From positions 1 through 36,218 of IMG/VR virus record IMGVR_UViG_3300045988_068382: a stretch of 36,218 nt of DNA. One strand, 5' to 3'. This document shows positions 1 through 36,218 of the stretch, one piece after another (the stretch's first letter is position 1; each line of letters begins with the position of its first letter). The notes under the pieces were generated by a model. It was not told where the DNA came from, made no database searches, and saw only the letters and a program-made list of their open reading frames with translations. The stretch is from a virus. Position numbers and translations under genes: made by a program.

Positions 1-119
1 ATGACCTGCGGGTTTACAAGGTCCTGAATGGTTGTTGTTTCTGCCATAGTTATTCTCCTTTTCTACCGGTCAGGGTGTCGTATGTGTCTTTGTCGGTCTT
101 GTACAAGTCCAGCCGCTGG
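1..119. repeat. Terminal direct repeat, copy 1 (identical to 36100-36218); consistent with circular assembly overlap or terminal redundancy
   Basis: Base-by-base comparison of the first 119 nt with the last 119 nt shows identity. It contains the 5' end of the capsid gene (start at 47 = 36146) and the scaffold stop codon (50-52 = 36149-36151). Confidence 0.95.
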
Positions 120-6910: not shown

Positions 6911-7191
6911 ACGTCCAGCTGGTCTACGTCAATGCCGTATGTTTTCCGCAGGTATGCGATTGCGTCATCTGCGGTCACGTCATGCCCGAAGATCTGCGGC
7001 AGATGCAGCAGCTCGTCCACGACACCGTAAACACGTTCCAGACGAATCTTTCGCCAGCCCAATGCCTTTTCCAGTGCCACAAGTGCCACTGCTATGCCCT
7101 GCTTTGCTCCGTCACGCAGTGCCTGTTCCTGCATCTCGATGTAAGATGATTCCGAAATGCGGACGGCGTAACGGTCTTTTCTGGTGTTCAT
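6883..7191 (-). CDS. Hypothetical protein (102 aa)
   Basis: ATG at 7191 (MNTRKDRYAV...) overlaps the stop of the upstream micro-ORF (ATGA). Composition looks coding. No motif recognised. Confidence 0.55.
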   Translation of the reverse strand: MNTRKDRYAVRISESSYIEMQEQALRDGAKQGIAVALVALEKALGWRKIRLERVYGVVDELLHLPQIFGHDVTADDAIAYLRKTYGIDVDQLDVCADAGGKE

Positions 7192-7274
7192 CTGCACACC
7201 ACCCCGCAAATCAGGAATCCTGCCACAAAACAGATCAGCCCGATTGCGGCGTAGGCTATGCTAGTTGGTTTCAT
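7188..7274 (-). CDS. 28-aa hydrophobic micro-ORF (single TM-like peptide)
   Basis: MKPTSIAYAAIGLICFVAGFLICGVVCR. The ATG overlaps the last codons of RusA, and the TGA overlaps the next ATG (ATGA), so it is translationally coupled on both sides. Confidence 0.35.
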   Translation of the reverse strand: MKPTSIAYAAIGLICFVAGFLICGVVCR

Positions 7275-7671
7275 GTTCCTCTGCCTCCTCGATCTTCACA
7301 AACACCCCCGGCACATCTGCCCAGAACTTCTCCACCACTGCACTGTAAATCTGCTTGTCATCGTTCCAGTAGTGCAGCCGGGTCATGATGTCGAACAGTG
7401 CCTTGCACAGGTTGTCCACGTCCGGCTTGTTGGTATAGGGTTCGCCGCTTTGGTGCTTTGCCTTTCTGGGATAGCACCACTTCACCACCACCTGCACCGC
7501 ACCGCTGTACGGCTGCTCCGGAATGTGCTTCATGAGATGGGCGGTCAGCTTTGCCTCTGCCTCGCCGTTCCCACGCTGGTAGAACCGGTGTCTGCCCTGC
7601 TTGTCGATGGTATGTCCCACCTGCTGGTGCGTACTGGTCGGCGGCAGCATGGGCAGGAAAAATGTTGTCAT
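7261..7671 (-). CDS. rusA: RusA-family Holliday junction resolvase
   Basis: 136 aa from the ATG at 7671, after GGAGG plus 7 nt. Motif KPDVDNLCKALFDIMT...WNDDKQI matches the RusA catalytic Asp cluster. Confidence 0.85.
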   Translation of the reverse strand: MTTFFLPMLPPTSTHQQVGHTIDKQGRHRFYQRGNGEAEAKLTAHLMKHIPEQPYSGAVQVVVKWCYPRKAKHQSGEPYTNKPDVDNLCKALFDIMTRLHYWNDDKQIYSAVVEKFWADVPGVFVKIEEAEEHETN

Positions 7672-12375: not shown

Positions 12376-13494
12376 TTAAAACGGCACTCGATTTTGCTGT
12401 ATCATTTCCACGATGTTCTTCCACCACGGAATGCACCAGCCTTCCACGAAGTCCTGCGGATAGTTCTGGACGGGCATATCTGCCGGAAAATAGCCCTTGC
12501 TGCCGACTACTGCCTGCAATTCCGACGGCTGCACCTGTGCGGCGGTCATCAGCTGTGCCAGCTGGGGTGCGATGCCGTCCAGAATGTGCTGCGTCTGGAC
12601 ATCTTCGGCGGTCTGCCGGGGCTCTGGCAGCTGTCCGTCCGCGGTAATCAGCAGCTCCGATTCCGCCAGATCCTTTTCCGTGGGCAGTCCGGCAGCCTGT
12701 GCCTTTTCTATGACCTGCTGTGCTTTTGGAACAGGTGCGGCAGCTGGTGCAGGTGCAGCGAAGACGGACGCAATGGACGCATATTCCAAGGGCAGCATCT
12801 CCGGCAAGCCGAACCGGTTCTTTGCGTCCCACCAAGCCGTTTTCGTGGTGTACATCACACGGTTGCAGGCAGTCGCCTTGTGCTTTTTGCCCTTGTCGTC
12901 GGTGGCGATGACGTGGGTCTGGAACGCCAGAAACAGGGTGATGTCTGACCACTCTTTCAGCAGCGGTGCGATCTTGTTGGTGGTCTTGTTCCCCAGTTTC
13001 AGTTCCCAGTGGTCGAACTCCGCATCGATCTCCGGCAGGGACGCCTTTCGGGTAACGGCGTGGCAGAGCAGTGCCACATTGACCCCTGCCTGCACAAGGC
13101 GTTCTGTGCTGTCCAGAAACCGTCCGATCTCCTCCGCCTCGTACTCCCAGCCCTTACCGTAGCCGAAGCCCTCAATGCCGTTGACCTGGTGCTTGCTGCA
13201 CAGCTGGGCAATGGCGAGGCGTTCTGCCCAGTCGAAGGTGTCGATGCACAAGGTCTGATACTGCCGCTGTGCGTGGGATTCCAGCACGAAGTCCACTTCC
13301 TGCTGGAGCATCTCCCAGCTAGTGGGCTTGGGCAGCCGCCGGACGTTCATCTTCGAGGTGCTGCCCTCGCAGTCCAGAAATACCGCTCCCGGCAGCTGTG
13401 CCGCCAGAGAGGTCTTTCCCACGCCCTCCTGTCCGTAGATGACCAGTTTCACGCCGGCACCGGTCTGAATGCCGTTTGTTTCTTCAAAATTCAT
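12376..13494 (-). CDS. AAA_24 / Sak4-like RecA-fold ATPase with a long C-terminal extension
   Basis: Walker [13 protein letters not shown], followed by FLDCEGST and CIDTFDW. 372 aa. The start overlaps the HNH gene stop (ATGA). Confidence 0.8.
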
Positions 13495-14030
13495 TGTGAT
13501 GTTCTCCTTTCCACGCTTCTTCTGTTGTGTGCTTGTGTTCTTGCATCAACCCATCGGCAGTTTTCAGGACAGTAATTCCCATTATTATCAATTCGGTCAA
13601 TCGTGCAAGCTCCACGCAGTGCATACGGGTCATAACCAGACTTCATCGCCCATTTATAAAATGCTTCAAAGCTTTGTTTCCACTCTTGACAAACAGATAT
13701 TCCTCGACCGCCGTATAAGTGAAAATGAACATTATTAGGGTCAGTGCAACGCTGACGCATTCCGCACCAGACATAATACAGACGAGTATGACTCTTTCCG
13801 TGTGTATGGTGCGGCGGGTTTGTTATCAAGAAAGAATAACGTGTGCAATCGCAATGAGAAGATACGCCGGATCGGAGTGATTTGCCATCGATATTCCTTT
13901 CTGCTCCGCAGTTTTTACATCTGCATTTCCAAAAAATACGTGGCTTTATACCGTGACCAGCGTACTCTGATTTGCAAATCACATTCCAATCCCCGAATTG
14001 TTTGCCAGTCAGATCAATAAATGCTCCCAT
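13491..14030 (-). CDS. HNH-type homing-endonuclease-like protein (zinc-ribbon N-terminus plus [17 protein letters not shown] motif)
   Basis: 179 aa from the ATG at 14030. Contains CRCKNCG...[24 protein letters not shown] and [19 protein letters not shown]. Visibly AT-richer than both neighbours. Start and stop overlap the flanking genes. Confidence 0.55.
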
Positions 14031-15298
14031 CAAAACACACCAGCTTCCCACGTTGTCTGTTGCTTTATTGCCTCATTCGGTGAAACAGAGTATCCATCAA
14101 CAATCAGGATAGAGCACTCGTCCCCGGTAGACACACGGGTGGCAATTGCCTGCAAACCTTCCTGTTCCAGCCACTGCCCGAACTCCTGCAGGGTGACGCT
14201 GTCCATCTGTTCCAGCTTGTCCAGCAGCACAAAGCCGCAGTCCGGATTCAGCTTTCGCACAATGGCAGCCGCCACTCGCAGTTGCTCTGAGCCGCTCATG
14301 CTGTCCCACTGCTTGCCGTGGTACTGTAGTGTTCCGTTTTCCACCGTCAGCCCTTCCAGCGGCAGGTCGGCGGCGTGCAGCAAGTCCTGTTTCTCCTGCC
14401 GCAGTGCGGTGATCTGCTCCGTCAATGCTTCGTAGTCCTGCCGGTAGGTCTTTGCCTCTTCCTCGGCGTGTTCCTTGTTCAGATTGTCCCGGATTTTTAT
14501 GTTGATGGCGTCGATCTCCGCAATATTTCTTTCCAGTTCGGCGGTGGATTCGTCCTGCAGATCCCGTGCGGACATCTGGGCAGTCACAGCGTTCTGCTCT
14601 GCCAGTTCCAGACGCTGTTTGGCTGCGTCATAGGCAGCCTGTGCGGCGGTGAGTTCCTGTGCATACCGGGCAGCGTTTTCCCGTTTCCGCTGGTTCTCGC
14701 CGTTGCGTGCCAGGATCTCCTGCTGCCGTGCGATCAGCTCCGATGCGGAAACCGGCGTGTTCGGCACGTTCTCCCAGCACTGCAGCTCTGAGGCATACTT
14801 CTGTTTCTGGTCGGCGATCCTGCCAATGGCGGTACGCTGGTTGTACAGCCGGCTTTCTTCGGATTCGATCTTTGCCAGCTGCTCGCCCACACCGATGATC
14901 TGCAGCAGGATCGCCGCTTTTTCCTTGTCCGATGCATTCATGAACTTGGGCAGATCCAGTGCCAGTGCAGACAGGAACGAGTTCAGCAGCTGCTGCCCTG
15001 CCTTGTTGCCGTTGGGGTCGATGACTTTCAGACTGCTGTTCTTGCCCTTTCGCTCTACGATCAGACCGTTGGACAGCTCCACATGGAGAATGGGATCGGT
15101 GTATGCCCCGTCCCTTGCCGCAGCGGTAGGCTTGTACTTGTCGCCGCCCAGTGCCCACGCAATGGCATCCAGCACAGAGGTTTTCCCCTGATTGTTGTTG
15201 CCGCCGATGATGGTCAAGCCGTTGGCGGACGGTTCCAGCTTTACCGCCTTGATCCGCTTGACGTTTTCGATTTCCAGACTGTTGATCTTCACGCTCAT
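14030..15298 (-). CDS. SMC/SbcC/RecF-like AAA ATPase (recombination/repair)
   Basis: N-terminus [19 protein letters not shown]...[21 protein letters not shown] (Walker A), a central coiled coil, and a C-terminal signature plus Walker B region ([13 protein letters not shown]...FVLLDKLE). Confidence 0.8.
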
Positions 15299-15504
15299 GC
15301 TTCTCCCTCCTCATACAGTTCAATGTGGTCGTAGGCGAACTGGACCATATCCCCCAGCACCTGTGTCTTGGTGCGTCCGGTTTCCAGTGCGACTTCCTCC
15401 ACCAGTGCGGCGTGTTCCAGACGCAGATTCACGCTGGTGAACAGCCGCCGTTCGCCGTTCTTCCTGCCGGCAGGCTCTTTCTTCTGCATTCTCAGTTTAT
15501 CCAT
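15295..15504 (-). CDS. Small ribbon-helix-helix-like protein (69 aa)
   Basis: ATG at 15504 after GGAGGAACATC. The segment FTSVNLRLEHAALVEEVALETGRTKTQVLGDMV has a strand-helix-helix pattern. Confidence 0.5.
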   Translation of the reverse strand: MDKLRMQKKEPAGRKNGERRLFTSVNLRLEHAALVEEVALETGRTKTQVLGDMVQFAYDHIELYEEGEA

Positions 15505-15658
15505 GATGTTCCTCCTCTGCCGGCTGTTCCGGCTTGTCCGGCGGCAGCAGCAAGCCGATGTGATCGGCACAGTGCAGCCGGTTGTCTAGTCCTAAGTACA
15601 AGGGCACGCTCCTGATGCCGCAGTTGACGCAGCGGTCTTTCTCGTTCCGGTTATCCAC
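15497..15658 (-). CDS. 53-aa ORF with a GTG start and a CxxC...CxxH zinc-ribbon-like pattern (below the ORF-track length cutoff)
   Basis: The GTG at 15658 lies 7 nt after GAGGAGG. Product VDNRNEKDRCVNCGIRSVPLYLGLDNRLHCADHIGLLLPPDKPEQPAEEEHHG. It overlaps both neighbours by a few nt and fills an otherwise non-coding gap of about 145 nt. Confidence 0.4.
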   Translation of the reverse strand: MDNRNEKDRCVNCGIRSVPLYLGLDNRLHCADHIGLLLPPDKPEQPAEEEHHG

Positions 15659-15839
15659 GGCGGCACGCCTCCTCGAATGCTGCCTTGTCCTGTGCAGCTT
15701 CCTCGTCCCGTTCGAGCTGCTGGAACTTTTGCAGCAGTCCCATTCCCCGATTCCAGATTTCTTTCGGCATCTCCATGTCGTGCCGGACGCTCTCGATCAG
15801 TTCAGCAACGATCTCGCTGTCTTTCAGTTTCGTTTCCAT
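15651..15839 (-). CDS. Hypothetical protein (62 aa)
   Basis: ATG at 15839 after TAGGAGGAAATGTCAA. Acidic and helical. No motif recognised. Confidence 0.55.
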   Translation of the reverse strand: METKLKDSEIVAELIESVRHDMEMPKEIWNRGMGLLQKFQQLERDEEAAQDKAAFEEACRRG

Positions 15840-15897
15840 TTGACATTTCCTCCTAAGTGTGGTATGATAGTTGTGGTTTTATTTACCCATGCCCCCG

Positions 15898-16584
15898 TTA
15901 CCGGTTGCCGCCGGTGCGGGGGTTTTCTTTTCCCCATTGCTCTGCCATGGCTCTTGCGATTCCGGGAAATGTTTTGCTCCTGTTTTTTGCACGGTCTTTT
16001 GTGAAAACGCCGCGATGCTTGCTGTCGTGTTTTTTGCTGTAAGAACCGGATGGGCAAAAAGTACCGATAGGCTCGACAGTTTCGGTTGGTACCAGCTTCG
16101 GAAGATTTTTCAGCCAAAGGCATGTCCTTTTGCTGTACGGATGCCCGAATTCATACGGCTGTATAATCTGCGTATATCGCGGCAGCTCATATACTTTGCT
16201 TGGGACAGGATTTTCAACGCAGATCCTTTCGCAGTTTGCATTCAAAAATTCCATAAAAAAAGCTTTGCCCTTCAATCCTTTTTCGTACCGTTCCCGATTC
16301 AAAACGTGATTTTTCCACAGATGTCTTGCTCCTGCATTGCTGAGATAGGTACACGGCGGGTGCGCAATCAGCATATCCCATCTGCCGTCCATTGTGTGTG
16401 ACTTTCCGTCACACGTAGTAAATGTGCACCTCCCAGTTATCAGAGGGATAACGTCCTGCATAATGTGCCACTCCGGATGCCCGCCGGAACATTCTTGTAT
16501 GTCGCAGCTGTACGCCTCGTGTCCAAGTCTACGAAATTCTGTGCACACTCGCTGGGATTCTTCGCATGCTACCAGTACTTTCAT
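15898..16584 (-). CDS. Atypical C5-cytosine DNA methyltransferase-like protein
   Basis: 228 aa. HPPCTYLSNAG (PC motif IV-like), CVENP (motif VI ENV-like), SKRTCLW, and a C-terminal TFPGIARAMAEQW (motif X-like). No classical FxGxG motif I is evident. The gene is AT-richer than its surroundings. Confidence 0.5.
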   Translation of the reverse strand: MKVLVACEESQRVCTEFRRLGHEAYSCDIQECSGGHPEWHIMQDVIPLITGRCTFTTCDGKSHTMDGRWDMLIAHPPCTYLSNAGARHLWKNHVLNRERYEKGLKGKAFFMEFLNANCERICVENPVPSKVYELPRYTQIIQPYEFGHPYSKRTCLWLKNLPKLVPTETVEPIGTFCPSGSYSKKHDSKHRGVFTKDRAKNRSKTFPGIARAMAEQWGKENPRTGGNR

Positions 16585-16801
16585 TTTCTATCACCTCTTT
16601 CTGCGTATTTTCATCACACTTTGCCTTGACGGCATTCATCGCCACTCTGGCACGTAAGTCCTTGATCGGTTCGAGTACCTCCGGAATCCCGCCGCCGGCG
16701 TAGAGATGCTCCAGCATCGGGAAGTCCGCCCTACTCATGGGCAGGGACAGCAGGTACTTTATCACGCCATTGTACTCCTCGGCGGTCATTTTGAGGATCA
16801 T
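16529..16801 (-). CDS. Hypothetical protein (90 aa)
   Basis: ATG at 16801, 8 nt after AAGGAGG. The 3' end overlaps the methyltransferase-like gene by 56 nt. Confidence 0.5.
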   Translation of the reverse strand: MILKMTAEEYNGVIKYLLSLPMSRADFPMLEHLYAGGGIPEVLEPIKDLRARVAMNAVKAKCDENTQKEVIENESTGSMRRIPASVHRIS

Positions 16802-16804
16802 TGG

Positions 16805-17062
16805 TTAGTCCTCCTTGTCCATGATTTCATCGAAGTGTGCAAGAACTACGACAAACCTTTTGAGCATTGCTCCCAGTATCTGCTTTGCATCGTACACACC
16901 GTTGCTGCTATCTGCCACGATATTGGCAATGTATACCGCACCAGCAAGATAGCAGTTCGTAACTTCGGCGGCGTTGGCGTTGCTTATCTTTGAACTCGGG
17001 GCGATCTGCTCATTCTCGTCCATCTTGATGTGGATCTCAATGTGTTTCTTCTTTTCTTCCAT
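16805..17062 (-). CDS. Hypothetical early protein (85 aa)
   Basis: ATG at 17062 after AAGGAGGAAACTAATC. The longer upstream extension is Cys/Arg-rich and has no RBS. Confidence 0.55.
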   Translation of the reverse strand: MEEKKKHIEIHIKMDENEQIAPSSKISNANAAEVTNCYLAGAVYIANIVADSSNGVYDAKQILGAMLKRFVVVLAHFDEIMDKED

Positions 17063-17253: not shown

Positions 17254-17412
17254 TCACGCCTTTGTGCTTGTTTGCGTTGCTTCTCCGTCCGACAGTCCCT
17301 GAATGTACGTGATTCCAAGCTTGATACTGGTTTCAGACATTCCAGAGATTTTCAACAACTCCCGCAGCAACTGCTTGACTTCTCTTACCTGTACCTGTGT
17401 TTTGTCAGCCAT
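17254..17412 (-). CDS. Hypothetical first gene of the leftward early operon (52 aa)
   Basis: ATG at 17412 after GAGGTGATACAT. Preceded by a non-coding leader region of about 300 bp. Confidence 0.5.
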   Translation of the reverse strand: MADKTQVQVREVKQLLRELLKISGMSETSIKLGITYIQGLSDGEATQTSTKA

Positions 17413-17648
17413 ATGTATCACCTCGCTTTGCGGAATTGCGGAGCGTCCGGGAGTTGCACCCGGCTGATACTCGTCGCCCCATCTGCGGCAGCATTGCCAG
17501 TACTGCCGCATGGATAAGAAAGGAGGTATTCGCCACAATGGCGATTGAAGATTGAAGATGTTGGTAAGCGGTTTTACGTCATGCTCGGGACGTGGAAACG
17601 CGGCTTCATTACAATTTAATTACATTTTTGTCGAATCCTGTCGAATAC

Positions 17649-17677
17649 TTGCATTCCACAAATGAATATGGTATAAT
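17649..17677 (+). promoter_or_regulatory. Promoter of the Ltp-like/lipoprotein operon
   Basis: TTGCAT (17649-17654), a 17-nt spacer ending in TATGg, and TATAAT (17672-17677). It lies 34 nt upstream of the ATG at 17711, which has an AGGAGG RBS. Confidence 0.6.
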
Positions 17678-17710
17678 AAAAATATCAATTTTTTAGGAGG
17701 ATGTACCACT

Positions 17711-18544
17711 ATGAAATGTCCGTCATGTGGCAGTGAAAACGCTGCCGGAACAAAATTCTGTAGCCTGTGCGGCACAAAGCTTCCGTTGGACGGTGCTGAA
17801 CAGCCGACCACCGCACAGTCTGCACAGCAGCCCGTTCCGCCGACCCCGCAGCAGCCCAACAACACATATCAGAATGCTGCACCGCAGTACCAACAGTACC
17901 AGCAGTATCCACAACCGCCGAAGAAAGAACCGCTTAGCAAGCAGACTTGGTTTGTCGTGCTGATGCTCATTCTGGTGTGGCCCGTTGGTCTGATACTGAT
18001 GTGGTGCAATAAGAAAGAATGGAAGCTGCCTGTAAAAATCATCATCACTGCCTTTTTTGCCCTGATGCTTATCATCGGTGCCGTATCTGGCAGCGGCAGC
18101 AGTTCTTCTGACGATTCCAGTTCTTCCCCTGTTGTGACTACGACAGCAACCACAACGGAAGAAACCGAAAAAGCAACAGAGGCAGTCACAGCAGAACCGA
18201 CAGAGGCACCGACCGAAGCACCGACAACTCCCGTTCCCACAGAAGATCCCAATGTCACAATCGGCATGAAAAATGCACTGAAAACGGCACAAAGCTATTT
18301 GAACATTTCTGCATTTTCTTATACCGGATTGATCGACCAGTTGGAATACGAAAAATATTCTGTAGAAGAAGCAACCTACGCTGCTGACAACTGCGGAGCC
18401 GACTGGAATGAACAGGCGGCAAAATGTGCACAGAACTATATCGACCTTACTTCTTTCTCCCGCGACGGGCTAATCGACCAGCTTATCTATGAGGGCTTCA
18501 CACAGGAGCAGGCTGAATACGGTGCACAGGCAGTAGGGTATTAA
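17711..18544 (+). CDS. Ltp-family (superinfection-exclusion type) protein with an N-terminal zinc ribbon and membrane anchor
   Basis: N-terminus MKCPSCGSENAAGTKFCSLCG (zinc ribbon), a P/Q linker, and two hydrophobic helices (TWFVVLMLILVWPVGLILMW; IIITAFFALMLIIGAV). An S/T-rich linker follows, then two Ltp repeats (NALKTAQSYLNISAFSYTGLIDQLEYEKYSVEEATYAADN; AAKCAQNYIDLTSFSRDGLIDQLIYEGFTQEQAEYGAQAV). Confidence 0.85.
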   Translation: MKCPSCGSENAAGTKFCSLCGTKLPLDGAEQPTTAQSAQQPVPPTPQQPNNTYQNAAPQYQQYQQYPQPPKKEPLSKQTWFVVLMLILVWPVGLILMWCNKKEWKLPVKIIITAFFALMLIIGAVSGSGSSSSDDSSSSPVVTTTATTTEETEKATEAVTAEPTEAPTEAPTTPVPTEDPNVTIGMKNALKTAQSYLNISAFSYTGLIDQLEYEKYSVEEATYAADNCGADWNEQAAKCAQNYIDLTSFSRDGLIDQLIYEGFTQEQAEYGAQAVGY

Positions 18545-18591
18545 ACCGCTGAACGCATAAGCATAAACATCAACTTTTAGGAGGAATTTAT

Positions 18592-19119
18592 ATGAAGTTC
18601 AAACTCTTAGCACTTGCACTCGCCGCCGCATTTGTGCTCTGCTTTGCTGGCTGCGGCTCATCTACAAATGAAAGTTCTGATTCTTCTGCACAGGCAGAGG
18701 AATCCAGCATTGCAGAATCCAGTGCGGAGGAATCCAGCACCGAAGAAGCTTCTGCTGCGGAAACGATTCCGGCAGGAGATTTTACAGTATCCGGAGATGG
18801 AACCGTGTACTTGTCTACTGCCGGCGGCACTACGGAAGATGGAAACGTTCCAGTTGTCAGTGCGTCCAGCGATACACAGATCAAACAGATCGGTATCAAT
18901 GCCCACGGTTACGACGGTACCATGATGGCTTACATCTACATCGACGGCAGCTTTGCAGACAAGCAGCAGCTGTCTGATTCTCAGGCTACTCTGGACTTGT
19001 CCGGTGAAAGCCTTACAGAAGGCGTTCACAAGGTTGAGGTTGTCCAGTATACCGGTGATACGGTATCCGCTGACAATGTAGCGACCTATCAGACCATGCA
19101 GTACGAAATCAAGTATTAA
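18592..19119 (+). CDS. Secreted lipoprotein of unknown function
   Basis: Signal peptide plus lipobox MKFKLLALALAAAFVLCFAG|C, an acidic Ser/Glu-rich linker, and a beta-rich C-terminal domain. The RBS is AGGAGG. It is co-oriented with the Ltp-like gene, with a 47-nt gap. Confidence 0.8.
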   Translation: MKFKLLALALAAAFVLCFAGCGSSTNESSDSSAQAEESSIAESSAEESSTEEASAAETIPAGDFTVSGDGTVYLSTAGGTTEDGNVPVVSASSDTQIKQIGINAHGYDGTMMAYIYIDGSFADKQQLSDSQATLDLSGESLTEGVHKVEVVQYTGDTVSADNVATYQTMQYEIKY

Positions 19120-19143
19120 GCAGATTTCTCTCTGCTTTCCCAA

Positions 19144-19172
19144 AAGCCTGCCGCTTTGCGGCGGGCTTTTTT
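19144..19172 (+). terminator. Rho-independent terminator ending the Ltp-like/lipoprotein operon
   Basis: AAGCCTGCCGC-TTT-GCGGCGGGCTT (11 bp with one G-U pair) followed by a T6 tract. On the opposite strand it is followed by UUUUGGG. Confidence 0.75.
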
Positions 19173-19237
19173 GCTGCCATGCCCGCAATGACCTCAAAGG
19201 TTCTTCGTGACGGAAGATACAGCGGTATCGTTTTTTC

Positions 19238-19266
19238 TTGTATTCACTGCTTCAGTATGGTATAAT
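19238..19266 (+). promoter_or_regulatory. Promoter of the DUF2513 gene
   Basis: TTGTAT (19238-19243), a 17-nt spacer ending in TATGg, and TATAAT (19261-19266). RBS GGAAGGGGGTGA, then ATG at 19291. Confidence 0.6.
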
Positions 19267-19290
19267 GGAGCGAGGAAGGGGGTGAATAAT

Positions 19291-19682
19291 ATGAAGTTAG
19301 ACTATGACTGTTTACGGTCATTGCTGTTAAAGTTGGAAGATTTTGAAAATCTTGATAATGATCTGTGCTATCAGTCCATGACACTAGATGATATGGAAAA
19401 AAACTGACAAACTTTTCAAAAAACGAGATTGCATACGCTACTTTGAAAGCCAAAGAAGGCGGTTTGATAAACGCAAACATCGTGAATGCAGATGATTGCA
19501 TTTATACGTGCATCTATTCCAGCTTAACTTACGATGGGCATCAATTCCTTGATAATGTCAGGAACAACAACATCTGGAATAAAACAAAATCGATTGCAAA
19601 AGAATTAGGATGCACATCGTTCCGTTCGCTGTTATCCATTTCCGAAAAAATTATTCTTGCTATGATTCAGTCGCAGTTATAG
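19291..19682 (+). pseudogene. DUF2513-family gene split by a frameshift at an A7 homopolymer
   Basis: The N-terminal part MKLDYDCLRSLLLKLEDFE... stops at 19405-19407. The continuation ...KLTNFSKNEIAYATLKAKEGGLINA...LTYDGHQFLDNVRNNNIWNKTK is in the +1 frame. An eighth A in the run at 19397-19403 would restore one ORF of about 130 aa. Confidence 0.7.
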
Positions 19683-19776
19683 GATTTGCATTCTCATCGG
19701 TCACGGCAAATTCTTTCTTTGTTGTAAGAAAGCAGCCAAGAAAGCCGCCGTTCGGTATCTGACAAATTTCTTTTTG

Positions 19777-19823
19777 GCACTCTGTATTTTTCTGTGGATC
19801 ACACAGGTACAGAGTGCTTTTTT
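19777..19823 (+). terminator. Rho-independent terminator after the DUF2513 gene
   Basis: GCACTCTGTA (19777-19786) pairs with TACAGAGTGC (19808-19817), with an inner stem CTGTG/CACAG, followed by a T6 tract (19818-19823). The tract overlaps the stop codon of the convergent 61-aa ORF. Confidence 0.75.
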
Positions 19824-20008
19824 CATCGATTTTCACTGTTTTTCACCCCCCTCTTGTCTTCTTTAGCGAGGTGATTGCGGCAAGCCTCGTAGATAGCTCC
19901 AGCGGTCACCCCGGGTGGATCCTTTAATACATTAGTCACTACAATTTGTCGGTTTTGTAATTCTAGTACAAGACCGGCAATTTCTGTGCCTTTTATTGTA
20001 ATTTCCAT
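19823..20008 (-). CDS. 61-aa protein transcribed divergently from the repressor (Cro-position gene; function unknown)
   Basis: ATG at 20008, 9 nt after AAAGGAG. It is the only gene downstream of the leftward switch promoter. No obvious HTH is recognised. Confidence 0.55.
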   Translation of the reverse strand: MEITIKGTEIAGLVLELQNRQIVVTNVLKDPPGVTAGAIYEACRNHLAKEDKRGVKNSENR

Positions 20009-20068
20009 TGCTGTCAACTCCTTTCTATGTATTCAGCTTTGTTCGGGTTTGTCCCTTGCTGTGATTCT

Positions 20069-20097
20069 ATAATATCACATTCGTGATATGATGTCAA
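20069..20097 (-). promoter_or_regulatory. Leftward switch promoter (TTGACA - 17 nt - TATTAT)
   Basis: On the minus strand the -35 TTGACA is at 20097-20092, the 17-nt spacer is TCATATCACGAATGTGA, and the -10 TATTAT is at 20074-20069. The spacer contains the operator palindrome. Confidence 0.65.
20072..20089. promoter_or_regulatory. Operator-like perfect palindrome ATATCAC-ATTC-GTGATAT
   Basis: 7-bp arms with a 4-nt spacer, located between the -35 and -10 of the leftward promoter. A degenerate copy (ATCAC-GAAT-GTATGAT, 20212-20227) occupies the same position in the rightward promoter. Confidence 0.6.
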
Positions 20098-20140
20098 CGC
20101 TTTTTCCTATGTTTGTGGTTTAAAATATTATTTTCGTATG

Positions 20141-20174
20141 ATTGCACAAAATTCAATTATCACTTTTGTGCAAT
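20141..20174. promoter_or_regulatory. Central inverted repeat ATTGCACAAAA - N12 - TTTTGTGCAAT between the divergent promoters
   Basis: Perfect 11-bp arms (20141-20151 and 20164-20174). The 12-nt loop contains another TTATCAC half-site. It lies upstream of both promoters, so it is probably a protein-binding site rather than an RNA structure. Confidence 0.6.
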
Positions 20175-20203
20175 TTTAAAGCCTTTTTCACACATATCGC
20201 ACG

Positions 20204-20232
20204 TTGACATTATCACGAATGTATGATACAAT
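20204..20232 (+). promoter_or_regulatory. Rightward switch promoter for the repressor operon (TTGACA - 17 nt - TACAAT)
   Basis: TTGACA at 20204-20209, the 17-nt spacer TTATCACGAATGTATGA, and TACAAT at 20227-20232. RBS GAGGAGG at 20244-20250, ATG at 20258. Confidence 0.7.
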
Positions 20233-20257
20233 GATATTATAGTGAGGAGGTGAAAGA

Positions 20258-20758
20258 ATGGAAACAAAAGACATACTAAAATCACTGCGTAAGTCAAACG
20301 GATATTCTACAATGCAAGAATTTTGTGCTGCGGCAGATATCAGCTTTAGCACATACCAAAACTATGAGTCTGGAAAAAGAGTCCCAACTGCCGAGATACT
20401 TGTAAAACTCGCTGACTTTTACGGCGTCACCGCCGACTACCTCCTCGGCAGACCCGATGCAAAGCCGCCGGAAGAACCGCTGGACGAATTTGCTCGAAAA
20501 GAGCATTTAAAAAGTTTAGAAAAAGTGTTTATGAAAAAGTACTTAGCACTTACCGAGGAACAACGGGACAAGGTTCTGGATTTCTTACGCGGCGTTGTGG
20601 CGGAGGAAACTGCCGCACAAGCCTCAAAGCTGAAGATGTCCCGTGTGTACGAAGCTGCAAGGAGCAACGATCCGAACAACGCACCACACTTTGCAGAGTA
20701 CCCAGAGGAAGAGCTGAAAAAACTGGATGATGATCCGGACACAGACTTCGACCTATAA
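20258..20758 (+). CDS. XRE-family (cI / ImmR-like) repressor without an S24 peptidase domain
   Basis: N-terminal HTH LRKSNGYSTMQEFCAAADISFSTYQNYESGKRVPTAEILVKLADFYGVTADYLLGR. The C-terminal half is acidic and helical, with no Ser/Lys autocleavage motif recognised. Confidence 0.88.
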   Translation: METKDILKSLRKSNGYSTMQEFCAAADISFSTYQNYESGKRVPTAEILVKLADFYGVTADYLLGRPDAKPPEEPLDEFARKEHLKSLEKVFMKKYLALTEEQRDKVLDFLRGVVAEETAAQASKLKMSRVYEAARSNDPNNAPHFAEYPEEELKKLDDDPDTDFDL

Positions 20759-20801
20759 TAAAAAACACCTCATGTGGTATAATAGCCATTGAGGTGATTT
20801 T

Positions 20802-21362
20802 ATGAATTATGGTATTTATAAGGGTGCCAGAGATGCGAGCTGGCGTTGTCTGATTGACTGCAATATATCAGAGCTGCCGGTGAAACCGGTACAGATCGCG
20901 TGGCAATACGGCTTGACCTGTAAGGATAGTGCACGGTTTTTGCAGGTTGACGAAGCAGGCAAGATCATTCGGCGTAGCTCCGGAGATGTTCAGATACTTC
21001 TGCGACCAGATGCACCTGTTTCGGGAAAGCGGTTTACCGTTATGCATGAATTAGGGCATTATCTGCTTGGGCATCTGGGAGACGAGCCACTGTCCAGAAG
21101 CCAGAGCACCATCACACAGCCGGAAGAATATGCGGCAGAGCGTTTTGCCGTAGGTGTATTGATGCCTGCTTGTGTTCTGTGGGGCATTGGAGCATTTGAT
21201 GCGGAAACGATAGCCCGGCTTTGCAACGTGTCTCCAGAAGCTGCACAACGTCGTTCTGAACGACTTCGTCTCTTGCGAAAGAGGGGGAAATTTTTGACCA
21301 GCCCGTTGGAACAGCAGGTCTTTCAACAATTTAAGGATTTTATTGCCAAAAATAAAGGATAA
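20802..21362 (+). CDS. ImmA/IrrE-family zinc metalloprotease (anti-repressor protease)
   Basis: Contains VMHELGHYLLGH (HEXXH) and a downstream EEYAAERFAVGVLMP, typical of DUF955/ImmA. It lies immediately downstream of the XRE repressor. Confidence 0.88.
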   Translation: MNYGIYKGARDASWRCLIDCNISELPVKPVQIAWQYGLTCKDSARFLQVDEAGKIIRRSSGDVQILLRPDAPVSGKRFTVMHELGHYLLGHLGDEPLSRSQSTITQPEEYAAERFAVGVLMPACVLWGIGAFDAETIARLCNVSPEAAQRRSERLRLLRKRGKFLTSPLEQQVFQQFKDFIAKNKG

Positions 21363-21492
21363 CAAAAAACCGCCCCACGGCGGCAACCGTGAAGCGGCAA
21401 GAGGAAAAACTATTGCTGTAATAGCCCTCCAGAACAAGGTCTATTATAGCATATTTCCTCTGAAATTGCAAGTACAAGGAGGAAAAAATATC

Positions 21493-22986
21493 ATGCAGGC
21501 AGCAGCATATGCACGATACAGCACAGAGCATCAGACCGACAGCAGCATTGCCTATCAGATGCGGAAGATCGAGGAGTACTGCGATGCCCACGGCATCACC
21601 GTATCCGCCCGTTACGCCGACGAGGCAATGAGCGGCACCAACACACAGCGACCGGCGTTCCAGTCCCTCTGCCGAGATGCTGCACAGCGAAAATTCGATG
21701 CCGTTGTGATCTACGACATCAGCCGTGGCAGCCGTGACGTTTCCGACTGGTTCAGTTTCCGGAAACAGATGGCTCTGCTGCACATTCAGGTCATTTCCGT
21801 AGAGGATCACATCGGCGACATTCTCAACCCTGCCGACTATCTGACGGAGCTGATCACCGTGGGGCTGGGGCAGCATCACGTCCTCACCAGCCGCCAGAAG
21901 TCCATGGACAGCATCGCCACCAAGGCAAAGACCGGACAGTTTCTGGGCGGTACGCCCAACTTCGGCTACACCATTGACAAAAACGGCAGATATGTGATCC
22001 AGCCGGCAGAGGCGGAGATCGTCCGGACAATATACCAGATGTACGCCGCCGGCAAAAGCTACGGCGAAATCTTAGACACCATCGGCGAAGTACGGGGACG
22101 GCGTGGCAAGGTCATGGGCAAGAACAGCCTGCACTATCTGCTGCGGAACGAGCGGTACATCGGCGTGTACAGCTGGTGCAAGTATCACCACAAGATCATG
22201 GGCAAGTATGCCGGAAATATCCCCAACGAGAACGCTGTCCGCATCGAGGACAGCATTCCGGCAATCATCGACAAGGACACATGGGAGGCGGTTCAGATGC
22301 GTATGAATGACAAGAAACAGCGGGCGTGCAACAAGGCAAAGCGGAACTATCTGCTCTCCGGTCTGATCGAATGTACGGAGTGTGGTGCCAGCTATGTGGG
22401 GCATACGTCCACCAACAAGCGTGGCTATTCCACACGGTACTACTGCTGCGGCAACAAGTACCGGAACCACACCTGCCACGCCAAGAACATCAATGCGGAG
22501 GAGCTGGAGGCATTCGTGGTGCAGAATCTGAAGCACTACCTTGCAAACGTGGACTTTTCGCAGATGGCACAGCAGATCGCCGACGAGATCAACGGTGCTA
22601 CAACTGACCTGAAAGCGGAGCGGAAGGAGCTGGCGGACATCATCTTCCAGCTGAACAACGGCACCAAGGCGATCCTCAAAGGCATTGACTATCCGGAATT
22701 GCAGGAGGAAATGTTCCGGCTGCGTGTGCGGAAGTCGGAGCTGGAGGACATGATCCAGCGTGGTGCAGAGCATAATCCGGTCAGCGTGGAAAAGCTGGTG
22801 CAGCTGTTCCAGAACGCCATGGAGCGTCTGGACACCGACACCAAACAGGTGTGCAAGTCCATGGTAAAAATTTACGCCCACTCCAATGGTGACTGTGACC
22901 TTGAAGTAGGCGTACATATAAATGGTTGCGGGAGCCGTCAAACTATCCTATGTACAACTATACATTTCTGTAAAAAAACGGCGTGA
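21493..22986 (+). CDS. Large serine recombinase (integrase)
   Basis: ATG at 21493 after AAGGAGG. The resolvase catalytic N-terminus AAAYARYSTEHQ is followed by a recombinase domain (FGYTIDKNGRY...), a zinc ribbon (CTECGASY...YYCCGNKYRNHTCH) and a coiled coil. Confidence 0.92.
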   Translation: MQAAAYARYSTEHQTDSSIAYQMRKIEEYCDAHGITVSARYADEAMSGTNTQRPAFQSLCRDAAQRKFDAVVIYDISRGSRDVSDWFSFRKQMALLHIQVISVEDHIGDILNPADYLTELITVGLGQHHVLTSRQKSMDSIATKAKTGQFLGGTPNFGYTIDKNGRYVIQPAEAEIVRTIYQMYAAGKSYGEILDTIGEVRGRRGKVMGKNSLHYLLRNERYIGVYSWCKYHHKIMGKYAGNIPNENAVRIEDSIPAIIDKDTWEAVQMRMNDKKQRACNKAKRNYLLSGLIECTECGASYVGHTSTNKRGYSTRYYCCGNKYRNHTCHAKNINAEELEAFVVQNLKHYLANVDFSQMAQQIADEINGATTDLKAERKELADIIFQLNNGTKAILKGIDYPELQEEMFRLRVRKSELEDMIQRGAEHNPVSVEKLVQLFQNAMERLDTDTKQVCKSMVKIYAHSNGDCDLEVGVHINGCGSRQTILCTTIHFCKKTA

Positions 22987-23140
22987 AAAAAAGAAGCAGC
23001 TTTGTGTGGAAATAAAGCGAAAAGGAGCAGCGACACAACAGAATTTTTAAGGATCAATCATATCAATGAATGTGTGAAAAAACTGGTCGTCTTGCTTTAA
23101 AAGCGTTTAACTTTTTCTCCCTATATTCTTATAATTAGTC

Positions 23141-23169
23141 TTGAAATGTGATCTACTTTGTGATATAAT
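23141..23169 (+). promoter_or_regulatory. Promoter of the Abi gene (TTGAAA - 17 nt - TATAAT with a TGTGa -16 element)
   Basis: TTGAAA at 23141-23146, the 17-nt spacer tgtgatctactttgtga, and TATAAT at 23164-23169. Confidence 0.6.
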
Positions 23170-23235
23170 TATAAATATTGCTATTTGATTCAGGACGGTG
23201 AAATAAATTTGGAAACATTATTATATCATTCTCCG

Positions 23236-24246
23236 ATGCTGGAGAAGAAACCTTACTGTTCCGCAACAGAACTCGTTGAAAAAATGGAAAGTAAAGGAAT
23301 TACATTTCAAATAATATCAAAAAGCGATGCTGAAAAATATCTAGTAGAAAAAAATAATTTTTTGAGATTATATGCGTATAGAAAAAATTTTCAAAAAGCA
23401 CGATTGGGCGAAAAGAAGGGTAAATATGTAAATCTCGATTTTTTTCATTTGAAAGCACTTGCAATTTTAGACTTGCAGCTTAGAAAGCAGATTTTTGGGA
23501 TTTGCGTCGACATAGAACATTGTCTGAAATTATCTCTTTTGAAAGACTTTGAAACAAGGGAACCAGAAGATGCGTATGCAATCGTCACTATTTTTTTAAA
23601 GAGTAACTCTTATACAGCAAATGACATTTTGCAAAAGGGCATTCAACGAAATGGTTACATAAGTGATTTGCTAGAAAAATACATTACAGAACGTGGGCAT
23701 TTAGATGATGAAGATGACGTGTATTATCACATATTTTACCAGAATGGCAAAGAAAAACAGTATCGTATCGATATGCCAATATGGGTTCTACTTGAATCCA
23801 TTACATTTGGCGGACTAATTCGCTTTTACAAATTTTATTATGAATATTATGAAAAAGATAGTCCCATTCCAATTAGACTGCTAAATAGCATAAAAAGTAT
23901 CCGTAATGCTTGTGCACATAACAATTGCATTTTGCATGATTTATCAAGAAACGAATGTCGCCCCCTTTCATTTGTCCGGACGTTTGTTTCAAAAAAAGGA
24001 TGCTCGAAATCGATGATTCAATCAAGATTGAAATGCCGAACACTGCATGAATTTGCAAGTGTATTGTATCTCGCTAATAAACGGTATGGAAATTCAACAT
24101 TTCTGCCAAAAGATATTTTACATCACGATTTAAAAGAAATACAAAGAGTTCTTGTGCGATTTGAACATAAATATTTAGGTCTGTTCCAGAAAAACGATAT
24201 AATACTTTCAAGTTTTCAATTTTTAAAGAAAATCGTTGACTTTTAA
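23236..24246 (+). CDS. Abi_2 family (AbiD/AbiD1/AbiF-like) abortive-infection protein, HEPN-type
   Basis: Contains LDLQLRKQIFGICVDIEHCLK, MPIWVLLESITFGGLIRFY and IKSIRNACAHNNCILHDL (Rx4H). The island is very AT-rich. Start is uncertain: ATG 23236, or TTG at 23218 or 23185. Confidence 0.85.
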   Translation: MLEKKPYCSATELVEKMESKGITFQIISKSDAEKYLVEKNNFLRLYAYRKNFQKARLGEKKGKYVNLDFFHLKALAILDLQLRKQIFGICVDIEHCLKLSLLKDFETREPEDAYAIVTIFLKSNSYTANDILQKGIQRNGYISDLLEKYITERGHLDDEDDVYYHIFYQNGKEKQYRIDMPIWVLLESITFGGLIRFYKFYYEYYEKDSPIPIRLLNSIKSIRNACAHNNCILHDLSRNECRPLSFVRTFVSKKGCSKSMIQSRLKCRTLHEFASVLYLANKRYGNSTFLPKDILHHDLKEIQRVLVRFEHKYLGLFQKNDIILSSFQFLKKIVDF

Positions 24247-29587: not shown

Positions 29588-31909
29588 TTATGTCACTCCT
29601 CTCCTTGCTTTGCTTTGCAGGTTGCCAAGTTCACGGTTCATATCAGTGGCGATAAGCTTTGCAAGCGTTCTGCCATTGATCTTGATGTCGTGACCAGATA
29701 CAGCCACCAGTTGCGGAAAGTAGTCCAGTATCGCCGCCAGAATTTCAGACAGCAGCTCCATAACGCCGGCATTTTCGGCACGGACAGCTTCCTGTACATA
29801 GCCTTGCAGCGTGGCAATAGGAGCGACAGCCTCTGCGCCTGCCTCACCACCAATCATGGCGTTACCAGTGCTAGGGTTAACGCCAAAAATGGTCGGCTGG
29901 TTAAGTACAGCACCCTTTGCGTACCACTCAACGCCGATGTGCGGAATGGACGGCGGGTCAAGGGAAAAACTGCCTTCAATGCTAAAATGTGGGAGTTTGA
30001 TGTCTGGCAAATGCCAGTCAAAATCGAATATACCTTTCAGCCAATCCACAACGGCGCCGATGGTCTCTTTTATTCCGCTAAATTTTTCAGACGCAGAATC
30101 AAAAATTCCTTTGAAAGTGTTTTTGAACCCGTCCATAAATCCACTTAAATAGCCGGAGACGGTGTTCCACATACCAGACACAATGCCTAGGATGCCGTTC
30201 CACATCTCGCTAAATCCTTGCTTGATCATGTCTGTATCGCCGGTAAAAATACCAACAAAAACATCAAACAAGCCTTGCAGAAATGAGAAAATGCCGTCTA
30301 TCCATTGCAAAATTCCGTCAATCGCACCCATAAAACCGTTGATAATACCAGATATCTCAGACACAGTTGTGGCAACTGCCGCTCCAATCAATCCGATAAT
30401 TGGTTTAAGCCAGTCTAGTTTGTCCCCGAATCCCTGGAACTTCTCAATCCATCCCGGGACGTGTGCGCTCAGAGTCTCAGAAATCACGGAAATGACAGGT
30501 GTGAATATAGCCGATATAACATTAATGACATCCGCCACAGCCCGGCAAGCTCCGGCGAACAAAGACATTACTGTGGATGCTGCTCCACCGCTTTCCGAAA
30601 ATCCGGATAGCTTTTCTGTGATAGGGGAGATAGCGTCTTTTAGATCGTTCCATGCGCCTTTCAGAGCGTCCATAATTGGCTGGAAAGACTCTTGCACAAA
30701 TGATGCGACAGCCTGTGCTTTTTCCCACCATTCTCCAAGTTTGTCCTTAAATTCGCTTATTTTCGGTGCAATATCCTGGAATTTCTGCCGTGCAATGTCA
30801 GCCCATTCGGAAAGCTTTTGCATAGCCGGATTAACAAACTCTTCCAGAATTGGTTCGCCGACCTCCGCCTTGAATTGCCGCCACTTCTCCGTCAGATTCG
30901 CTTGCACGTTGGCATACTGCGTGGATTCCTTTGCCGCTTGTCCAACGGCGCCGGATGCCTGCATCATGTTCTGTGCATATTCCAGACGTGTAGCCTGTTT
31001 TGTAGCCTCGTCCAGGCTTGCCCATGCTTTGGTTTCGGATATAACGCCTTTTTCCACGGCGTAGGACGCCATCTGCGTATCATTTGCAAATAAGCCGATA
31101 GCCTCACCGCCCTCGTAAGAACCGTTGATAAAGCTATTCAGATGCCCCATAGACTCATCCAGGGACACATCCCAGAACGCTGCTGCATCTGATGCCAGAG
31201 ACAAGCCAGATGCTGCAAGGTCGGTGGCGTCTTCCACCCCAAATCCTAAGCCCTTAAATTTTGCGGTAAGGGAAGTCATGCTGCCGGTCAGACGTGTGGA
31301 CACTACGCCGGTAGAGTTCGCCACTTCCTGCATCTTCTTTTGCGCAGTTCCGGCGTAGTCTCCCATGATTTGGTCAAATGCGGAATTTTCTGCCGAAACT
31401 TCGGCTGCTGCGTCCACAGATTCTTTTCCAAATTTTATAAGCGCACGCCCGGCTTGTGCTGCAAGGTCAATGACCTTTTCCAGACCGCTTGCTATTACAT
31501 TTGAAATAGCGCCTTTCATGACAGAAAATCCGCCCTCTGTATTTTTGGCGCTTTCTCCCAGGTCTTTAACCGACTTTTTCGCCTTTCCGGCGGAATCGTC
31601 AAGATCATTCTGCGTGCGGTCTAATTGATCGGCAGCTCTTTCAGCAGTTTTCAGCTTGTTTTCGTTCTGCTTAAGTTCTGCACTAAGCTTTTCAATACTT
31701 TCGGCGCATTCTTTCGCCTCTTTGGAGTTTTTCCCTTGTGTCAGATAGAGGTCTTTGTATTTGGTTTTCAGCTTGTCAAGCTCTGACTTCTGCTCGCTGA
31801 TCTCTCCTGTCAGAGAATCCAGAGATGCAGATGTTACTTTTACGTCGCTGCTCTTGCCCTTGAAAGCCTTGCTGAATGATTCTCCGATCTTCCCGAACGC
31901 TTTTGACAT
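29588..31909 (-). CDS. Tape measure protein
   Basis: 773 aa, a long helical Ala/Gly/Ser-rich protein with hydrophobic glycine-zipper-like segments (GIFTGD..., IIGLIGAAVATTV). It lies between the chaperones and Dit. Confidence 0.9.
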   Translation of the reverse strand: MSKAFGKIGESFSKAFKGKSSDVKVTSASLDSLTGEISEQKSELDKLKTKYKDLYLTQGKNSKEAKECAESIEKLSAELKQNENKLKTAERAADQLDRTQNDLDDSAGKAKKSVKDLGESAKNTEGGFSVMKGAISNVIASGLEKVIDLAAQAGRALIKFGKESVDAAAEVSAENSAFDQIMGDYAGTAQKKMQEVANSTGVVSTRLTGSMTSLTAKFKGLGFGVEDATDLAASGLSLASDAAAFWDVSLDESMGHLNSFINGSYEGGEAIGLFANDTQMASYAVEKGVISETKAWASLDEATKQATRLEYAQNMMQASGAVGQAAKESTQYANVQANLTEKWRQFKAEVGEPILEEFVNPAMQKLSEWADIARQKFQDIAPKISEFKDKLGEWWEKAQAVASFVQESFQPIMDALKGAWNDLKDAISPITEKLSGFSESGGAASTVMSLFAGACRAVADVINVISAIFTPVISVISETLSAHVPGWIEKFQGFGDKLDWLKPIIGLIGAAVATTVSEISGIINGFMGAIDGILQWIDGIFSFLQGLFDVFVGIFTGDTDMIKQGFSEMWNGILGIVSGMWNTVSGYLSGFMDGFKNTFKGIFDSASEKFSGIKETIGAVVDWLKGIFDFDWHLPDIKLPHFSIEGSFSLDPPSIPHIGVEWYAKGAVLNQPTIFGVNPSTGNAMIGGEAGAEAVAPIATLQGYVQEAVRAENAGVMELLSEILAAILDYFPQLVAVSGHDIKINGRTLAKLIATDMNRELGNLQSKARRGVT

Positions 31910-36146: not shown

Positions 36147-36218
36147 AGTTATTCTCCTTTTCTACCGGTCAGGGTGTCGTATGTGTCTTTGTCGGTCTTG
36201 TACAAGTCCAGCCGCTGG
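36100..36218. repeat. Terminal direct repeat, copy 2 (identical to 1-119)
   Basis: See the feature at 1-119. Confidence 0.95.

Follow-up and report, generated by a model that had tools for sequence, protein, structure and literature searches.

We examined a viral DNA of 36,218 nucleotides (nt) from IMG/VR (record IMGVR_UViG_3300045988_068382, positions 1 to 36,218), referred to here as the window, with a focus on a plus-strand gene at 17711..18544 (277 amino acids (aa), ATG start, stop codon included) whose product ends in a pair of Ltp repeats. Ltp is among the few Gram-positive phage exclusion proteins for which both structure and target are known, and the literature treats it as a lipoprotein. 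Judging from its sequence, the protein described here is probably a prophage-expressed superinfection-exclusion protein of the Ltp type that is displayed on the cell surface, and in which the lipid anchor has been replaced by a protein anchor.

Several searches recognized the C-terminal repeats. Pfam Lipoprotein_Ltp (PF07553) matched them in two stretches (E=1.4e-29; 102.4 bits against a cutoff of 23.2), PHROG families 4980 and 15667 ("superinfection exclusion") did so with E=1e-41 and E=4e-37, respectively, and a phmmer search against PDB sequences aligned both repeats with the Ltp protein of the Streptococcus thermophilus phage TP-J34 (PDB 4EQQ; E=2e-11). An AlphaFold2 (AF2) model built on 52 homologs has six helices at residues 184-274, with a per-residue confidence (pLDDT) of 95-98; three belong to repeat 1 (184-199, 204-213 and 218-227; 18263..18400, plus strand) and three to repeat 2 (232-246, 251-260 and 265-274; 18401..18541, plus strand). 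Foldseek superposed this model on the 4EQQ crystal structure with a TM-score of 0.89 (target-normalised), a root-mean-square deviation of 1.1-1.3 Å and 36% identity, and the next matches, RecX repeats, were not significant (probability 0.95-1.0, E ≥ 0.27). By profile search and structure prediction, the C-terminal pair is a true Ltp fold and a member of the Ltp domain family, as an initial annotation of this DNA had proposed.

The published traits of that family are two helix-turn-helix (HTH) repeats, an acidic pI and an N-terminal membrane anchor (PMC5137146). All of these are present in our protein (the pI of residues 185-277 is 4.05) except the lipid anchor: the lipobox pattern [LVI][ASTVI][GAS]C occurs nowhere in the 277 residues, in agreement with the initial annotation. 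Since the defining lipoprotein feature fails, the protein should not be called an Ltp lipoprotein.

The residues upstream of the repeats are instead occupied by a composite scaffold, all parts of which (zinc ribbon, P/Q linker, two hydrophobic helices and S/T stalk) had been named in the initial annotation and were recovered here by Pfam, hydropathy, AF2 and composition, well above what chance would give. The ribbon (Zn_Ribbon_1, PF13240; 30.3 bits against a cutoff of 25) covers residues 2-24, with cysteines C3, C6, C17 and C20 (17714..17782, plus strand; pLDDT ~90). A disordered P/Q-rich linker follows (residues 26-72, 17786..17926, plus strand; pLDDT 45-55), in which 23 of the 47 residues are P or Q and which has the basic end PPKKEPLSK. 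Hydrophobic helix 1 comprises residues 78-98 (TWFVVLMLILVWPVGLILMW; 17942..18004, plus strand; 76-99 in AF2), and its central Pro91 is invariant in the hairpin alignment. A basic loop at residues 99-108 (CNKKEWKLPV, then K109; 18005..18034, plus strand), predicted to be cytoplasmic, connects it to hydrophobic helix 2 (residues 109-126, 18035..18088, plus strand; 106-125 in AF2), which is predicted to be signal-anchor-like, N-in to C-out; both helices have a pLDDT of ~80. The stalk at residues 127-184 (18089..18262, plus strand) is disordered in AF2 and acidic, with 24 S+T, 11 D+E, 7 P and a single K/R among its 58 residues.

In the mechanism that we propose, a lysogen would transcribe the gene from the gene's own promoter, as part of a moron cassette of two genes, the other one encoding a lipoprotein, with a terminator of its own at the end. 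The two helices would insert as a hairpin with the lysine-rich loop in the cytoplasm, as the charge statistics below suggest, and helix 2 would act as the signal-anchor, N-in to C-out. This would leave the acidic S/T/E/P stalk, ~58 residues long, outside the membrane together with the likewise acidic Ltp pair (pI about 4), as in the lipoprotein Ltp. There, by homology to TP-J34 Ltp, the pair would bind the tape measure protein of an incoming siphophage during ejection and so block DNA entry. TP-J34 Ltp is active without its lipid anchor, and its soluble form has a broader range (PMC3952083); because lipid-free Ltp is still active, the chemistry of the anchor should not matter for the mechanism.

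Some observations weigh against an exclusion function. Carrying an Ltp domain is no proof of exclusion, because a search with this domain yields 7,921 clusters at 50% identity, a very large family to which non-exclusion proteins such as pneumococcal CbpL also belong. The PADLOC models matched neither the Ltp-like gene nor its lipoprotein neighbour, and the phage's own tape measure protein has no conspicuous basic C-terminal region in its charge profile; the true targets would be other phages. A surface-displayed protein could also serve some other form of lysogenic conversion, for example through attachment to a component of the cell wall or the host, the role suggested for the Ltp domain of CbpL. 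Thousands of bacterial proteins do combine Ltp domains with many different partners, CbpL itself is a non-lipoprotein Ltp-domain protein linked to virulence and not to phage exclusion (PMC5137146), and at the locus studied here an unrelated domain with no assigned function can take the place of the Ltp head. We nevertheless regard this explanation as rather unlikely: every context examined places the gene in a phage, next to the repressor in the lysogeny module, where ltp classically lies; the PHROG families that carry the domain are exclusion families; and fold and acidity both match the sole member with a known mechanism.

Topology of the hairpin anchor

According to the positive-inside rule, basic segments of membrane proteins stay cytoplasmic. 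In the present protein the loop including K109 has four K/R and one D/E, the 15 residues after helix 2 have no K/R and two D/E, and the stalk as a whole has one K/R against 11 D/E. We extended these counts to 30 Ltp proteins with a short-loop hairpin anchor, which represent at least three hairpin types. The mean number of K/R was 2.8 in the N-flank, 4.37 in the loop and 1.30 in the C-flank, with the loop exceeding the C-flank in 26 of the 30 proteins. Three of these proteins (P0026, P0213 and P0238) have nearly no N-tail and no K/R before helix 1, giving a clean N-out/loop-in/C-out prediction. Because the loop is basic and the C-flank acidic, the most likely arrangement is a hairpin loop inside, with the stalk and the Ltp pair predicted outside.

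Other lines of evidence argue for the same placement. Ltp domains with 54-69% identity to ours are located behind lipoprotein signals (for example in P0015, P0030 and P0039), the stalk resembles the extracellular spacer of TP-J34 Ltp, whose serine-rich spacer has been defined (PMC3952083), and the alternative head carried by this scaffold belongs to an exported type (see below).

Two features of helix 1 fit this arrangement less well. The flank before it (three K/R, one D/E) is also basic, in line with the family mean of 2.8, so that a plain N-out/C-out hairpin breaks the positive-inside rule on the N side. Moreover, AF2 draws helix 1 as a continuous helix of 24 residues, which does not support a re-entrant dip. 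The location of the zinc ribbon and P/Q tail can be read in two ways. They may be exported across helix 1, since the N-tails of hairpins are near neutral and the modelled helix 1 is continuous: net tail charge averages +1.0 before hairpins (n=22) and +6.5, with a minimum of +2, before single anchors (n=31; Mann-Whitney p ~2e-7, a value inflated by sequence kinship). Alternatively, ribbon and tail may stay inside with helix 1 re-entrant around the invariant proline, because the flank is basic, the proline is invariant, and a standalone relative begins with MKKKKNGK directly before helix 1. The near-neutral tails and the continuous AF2 helix weaken re-entry as the sole answer, and we keep it as one of two options. 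Both options leave the Ltp pair outside.

The initial annotation had predicted cytoplasmic Ltp repeats, in conflict with the extracellular action of Ltp, and had concluded that either topology or mechanism must differ from TP-J34. The conflict arose because the ribbon was assumed to be cytoplasmic and both helices to span the membrane. This C-in model is the least consistent with the sequence data, and the charges point to an external Ltp pair; the topology does appear to depart from what was assumed, and the charge statistics call for no change of mechanism. With the ribbon inside, both helices spanning and the Ltp pair cytoplasmic, the protein would exclude from the inner membrane face, acting on the tape measure protein or the DNA as it emerges in the cytoplasm, or it would have a RecX-like regulatory role, in either case unlike the TP-J34 mechanism. 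Such an arrangement would suit the two continuous AF2 helices of transmembrane length and the basic flank before helix 1. In the single-helix zinc-ribbon class, very basic tails (net +6.5) mark the cytoplasm and put the ribbon opposite the Ltp domain, and the Ltp fold does resemble the three-helix repeats of RecX (the Foldseek matches at E ≥ 0.27, and a weak RecX_HTH1 Pfam match in relatives). It would however leave the most basic segment, the loop with its four K/R, outside and the acidic, K/R-free S/T segment inside, contradicting the positive-inside rule in 26 of the 30 relatives. It also runs against the lipoprotein signals that precede closely related Ltp domains, the match of the stalk to the TP-J34 spacer and the exported type of the alternative head, and the near-neutral hairpin tails are unlike cytoplasm-locked ones. 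We therefore consider a cytoplasmic Ltp pair improbable.

It is equally doubtful that the basic loop and helix 2 form a cleaved internal signal peptide (possible cleavage site A-V-S|G, residues 124-127), whose removal would release the stalk together with the Ltp pair, either in soluble form or associated with the cell wall. In favour of such a peptide, the loop, helix 2 and GAVSG are ordered like the n, h and c regions of a Sec signal peptide, the alignment with PHROG 4980 starts at residue 101, so that helix 2 stands where classical members have their signal peptide, and soluble Ltp is active with a broader range (PMC3952083). However, internal signal-like segments are uncommonly cleaved, it would be difficult to see why the upstream ribbon and helix 1 are conserved if they were discarded, and no internal start or ribosome-binding site exists for a classical precursor. 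No ribosome-binding site lies ahead of any internal Met codon of the 277-aa open reading frame (ORF), which rules out an internal start at M97 that would yield a classical signal-peptide form.

Head exchange and prevalence of the scaffold

The scaffold is not tied to the Ltp repeats. Over the first 65% of our protein, four others (P0004, P0005, P0007 and P0009) are 75-86% identical to it, and they carry a different C-terminal domain, a tandem Rv1352/Rv1906c-type repeat (NF053833, 57.7 bits against a cutoff of 25; PF27111, Rv1352). Rv1352 itself has a Sec signal peptide and is O-glycosylated in the culture filtrate of M. tuberculosis (PMC7053730).

The exchange could be followed at the DNA level by comparing the window with the prophage that encodes P0005 (L004), using blastn. 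The two are 92% identical over 12709-16819, which holds early genes, and 91% identical over 17410-18226, which holds the promoter and codons 1-172; similarity then ends after 18226 and returns at 19117-19181. These breakpoints, with junctions read at the base level, delimit an exchangeable cassette at 18227..19116 (plus strand) that comprises the end of the stalk, the Ltp pair and the lipoprotein gene. It measures 890 bp in the window and 483 bp in L004, where it holds the Rv1352 tandem (L004 6523-7005) and no separate lipoprotein gene follows 3' of the Rv1352-headed gene. The left junction falls within the repetitive stalk DNA coding for TEAPTEAPT; the right one coincides with the stop codon, beyond which the two prophages share the terminator hairpin. 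Both alleles are also found among IMG/VR viral contigs, the Ltp head in L091 and L092 and the Rv1352 head in L089 and L090, with L091 encoding our protein with two substitutions. In sister prophage L007 (5001-6006), the Rv1352-headed gene is split by a frameshift in the stalk region into a scaffold-only ORF of 131 aa and an ORF of 216 aa.

The same proline-centred hairpin was found with two further unrecognised heads, one in L097 (2249-3415), where it follows a double zinc ribbon, and one in L093-L096 (2489-3091), where the ribbon is missing and the hairpin lies at the very N-terminus (MKWYKSS-). Neither of these C-terminal domains matched a Pfam family.

These results show that anchor and stalk form a modular display scaffold, and that a sister prophage has a different head, of an exported type, at the same locus. 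It is possible, and we put this forward tentatively, that the ribbon, hairpin and stalk make up a recombination-ready scaffold on which prophages swap surface heads (Ltp, the Rv1352 type and others) through the repetitive stalk-coding DNA. A head swap on a constant anchor is a case of intragenic mosaicism and not a new principle. The Rv1352-type domain would be a candidate exclusion head.

The initial annotation had called the scaffold unusual. This is correct for deposited phage genomes: 149 records match our protein, the matches are confined to the Ltp repeats and in every case cover less than 80% of its length, and the zinc-ribbon/hairpin scaffold is present in 0 of these 149. It does not hold for metagenome-derived proteins, among which 43 of the best 120 full-length matches start with a CxxC...CxxC ribbon, 21 of them with two hydrophobic segments and 19 with one; another 31 of the 120 have a lipobox. 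We also searched with the Ltp domain only, which is free of bias towards the ribbon, and classed the best 150 of 7,921 clusters. Among these 150, 49 had lipobox signals, 40 other N-terminal signals or anchors, 13 a zinc ribbon with one helix, about 8 a zinc ribbon with two helices, and 9 a two-helix hairpin without ribbon. An N-terminal zinc ribbon is thus found in at least 21 of the 150 nearest Ltp clusters at 50% identity (at least 14%). We found no description of a zinc-ribbon-anchored Ltp in the literature. One paper states that all Ltp-domain proteins reported until then, CbpL excepted, were lipoproteins (PMC5137146). The architecture is therefore undescribed and uncharacterised, yet not rare.

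The hairpin of the type found in our protein has a recognizable motif, with a basic flank, W-F...[FWY]-P-x-[GP]...L-M-W, KK-x-W-K...K and helix 2, in which the central Pro and K109 are invariant. A search with a hairpin profile against a database of 5.8 billion proteins retrieved 22 short and mostly fragmentary proteins, which say little on partner domains, and a search with the scaffold only (residues 1-131) gave 3 matches, the low-complexity linker probably starving the word index. Residues 67-149 (nt ~17909-18157) also aligned with NF058595, a "lipo-invert putative C-terminal anchoring domain", at 16.5 bits, below its cutoff of 37; P0004 scored 21.7 bits, likewise sub-threshold. We did not use this match to assign our protein to that family; it may be a sign that hairpin anchors form a larger family. 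A PHROG holin match on a hairpin relative (E=7e-5) was set aside as sub-threshold or likely compositional.

The gene cassette and its phage

The Ltp-like gene is preceded by a promoter-like element that we read from the sequence, TTGCAT-17-TATAAT with TG at −15/−14, forming an extended −10 (17649..17677, plus strand). It was not listed by a consensus scan because its −35 hexamer is weak, matching 3 of 6 positions; the element lies inside the block 17410-18226 that is ~91% identical in L004. A ribosome-binding site, AGGAGG, is located 10 nt upstream of the ATG (17695..17700, plus strand). Two minus-strand ORFs within the gene (189 and 132 aa) are Cys/Arg-rich antisense readings of the acidic S/T-coding strand, and we did not count them as genes.

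Downstream lies a gene for a lipoprotein of 175 aa (18592..19119, plus strand), with the lipobox FAGC and an S/E-rich stalk, which belongs to PHROG 32721 (function unknown) and is predicted to be co-transcribed with the Ltp-like gene. Its best annotated relative is a hypothetical protein of the Clostridium scindens phage phiCs5676-1 (39% identity). A terminator-like hairpin (19151-19164) with a T run, common to L004, closes the two-gene cassette (19151..19174, plus strand). Next to it, two adjacent plus-strand ORFs (19207-19407 and 19443-19682) read as one gene split by a frameshift. The suspected site is an A7 run near 19393-19399, where one added A joins both ORFs (...DDMEKKLTNFSKNEIAYATLKAKEGGLI...); the joined gene, 19207-19682, presumably resembles DUF2513, and a mistake in assembly, a pseudogene or slippage may explain the frameshift.

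Window positions 1-119 and 36100-36218 are identical. Because of this exact 119-nt end overlap, the window is a circular assembly with a unique length of 36,099 bp, and it represents a complete temperate siphophage; the major head gene lies at one window end and the scaffold-protein gene at the other. According to PHROG scans, the minus strand encodes the scaffold protein, portal, terminase, RusA, primase, helicase, a Sak4-like protein, HNH and a methyltransferase, and then the endolysin, holin, tail proteins, Dit, tape measure protein (773 aa, 29588..31909), major tail protein and major head protein. All plus-strand genes form a single block at 17711-24246, a lysogeny/moron island of which the Ltp-like gene is the first, followed by the lipoprotein gene, an HTH repressor (20258-20758, with its own promoter at 20204), an ImmA/M78-like protease, a serine integrase and an AbiD-like gene. 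The candidate gene is thus the first of two in a cassette that has a promoter and a terminator of its own and lies in the lysogeny region, the classical ltp position and the place where a prophage exclusion gene is expected.

The AbiD-like abortive-infection gene (23185-24246, plus strand; PADLOC AbiD, E=3e-18; PHROG 2158) is a second defence moron carried by the prophage. It lies directly 3' of the serine integrase and has a GC content of 0.32, compared with 0.52 for the genome.

When 24 kb of the phage was compared by megablast with 50,697 deposited phage records, nothing closely related at the DNA level turned up. The probable hosts are gut Clostridia, judging from the protein relatives and from flanking host genes (CotJA/B, dockerin). 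Two other prophage backbones, one with a serine and the other with a tyrosine integrase, encode proteins of the same architecture (68% and 61% identity) at this position. Another prophage with such a gene (L008) also has a small TM2-domain protein (7164-7547) in its lysogeny module, and some relatives (P0063 and P0084) have TM2 domains in direct fusion with Ltp repeats.

Comparison with known systems

A sizeable part of the Ltp family in gut Clostridia appears to use protein anchors, either a zinc ribbon with one helix or a two-helix hairpin. Anchor and head behave as separate modules, exchanged between near-identical prophages inside low-complexity stalk-coding DNA. A set of candidate exclusion heads follows from this, the Rv1352-type domain being an example, and the scaffold offers a simple natural design for surface display. 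It also raises a question of membrane biology, namely whether an N-terminal zinc ribbon is exported in these anaerobes or a proline-centred helix re-enters the membrane.

With TP-J34 Ltp our protein shares two tandem three-helix HTH-like repeats, an acidic pI, a disordered Ser/Thr-rich spacer between anchor and repeats, and a gene in the lysogeny module of a temperate siphophage. It differs in having neither signal peptide nor lipobox Cys; its anchor consists instead of ~126 residues of zinc ribbon, P/Q linker and two-helix hairpin. Its host is predicted to be a gut Clostridia bacterium and not a streptococcus, and its exclusion activity and target are proposed by homology.

The closest anchors are those of the zinc-ribbon, single-helix Ltp proteins (P0017, P0025 and P0032), which likewise combine a CxxC...CxxC ribbon, a membrane helix, an acidic stalk and Ltp repeats, without a lipobox. 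Their one helix follows a very basic N-tail (net +2 to +10), so that by sequence they are predicted to be an unambiguous N-in/C-out type II anchor, whereas our protein has a near-neutral tail, a long P/Q linker, a second hydrophobic helix and an invariant central Pro. The sister prophage proteins P0004 and P0005 are ~91% identical to ours in DNA over the promoter and codons 1-172, with the same locus and the same terminator, and differ by their head, a tandem beta-type Rv1352-like domain of unknown function. CbpL of Streptococcus pneumoniae is unlike our protein in being chromosomal, wall-bound and virulence-linked, with a single Ltp repeat next to Excalibur and choline-binding modules; through its choline-binding anchor, it shows that an Ltp domain can be displayed on the surface without a lipid anchor.

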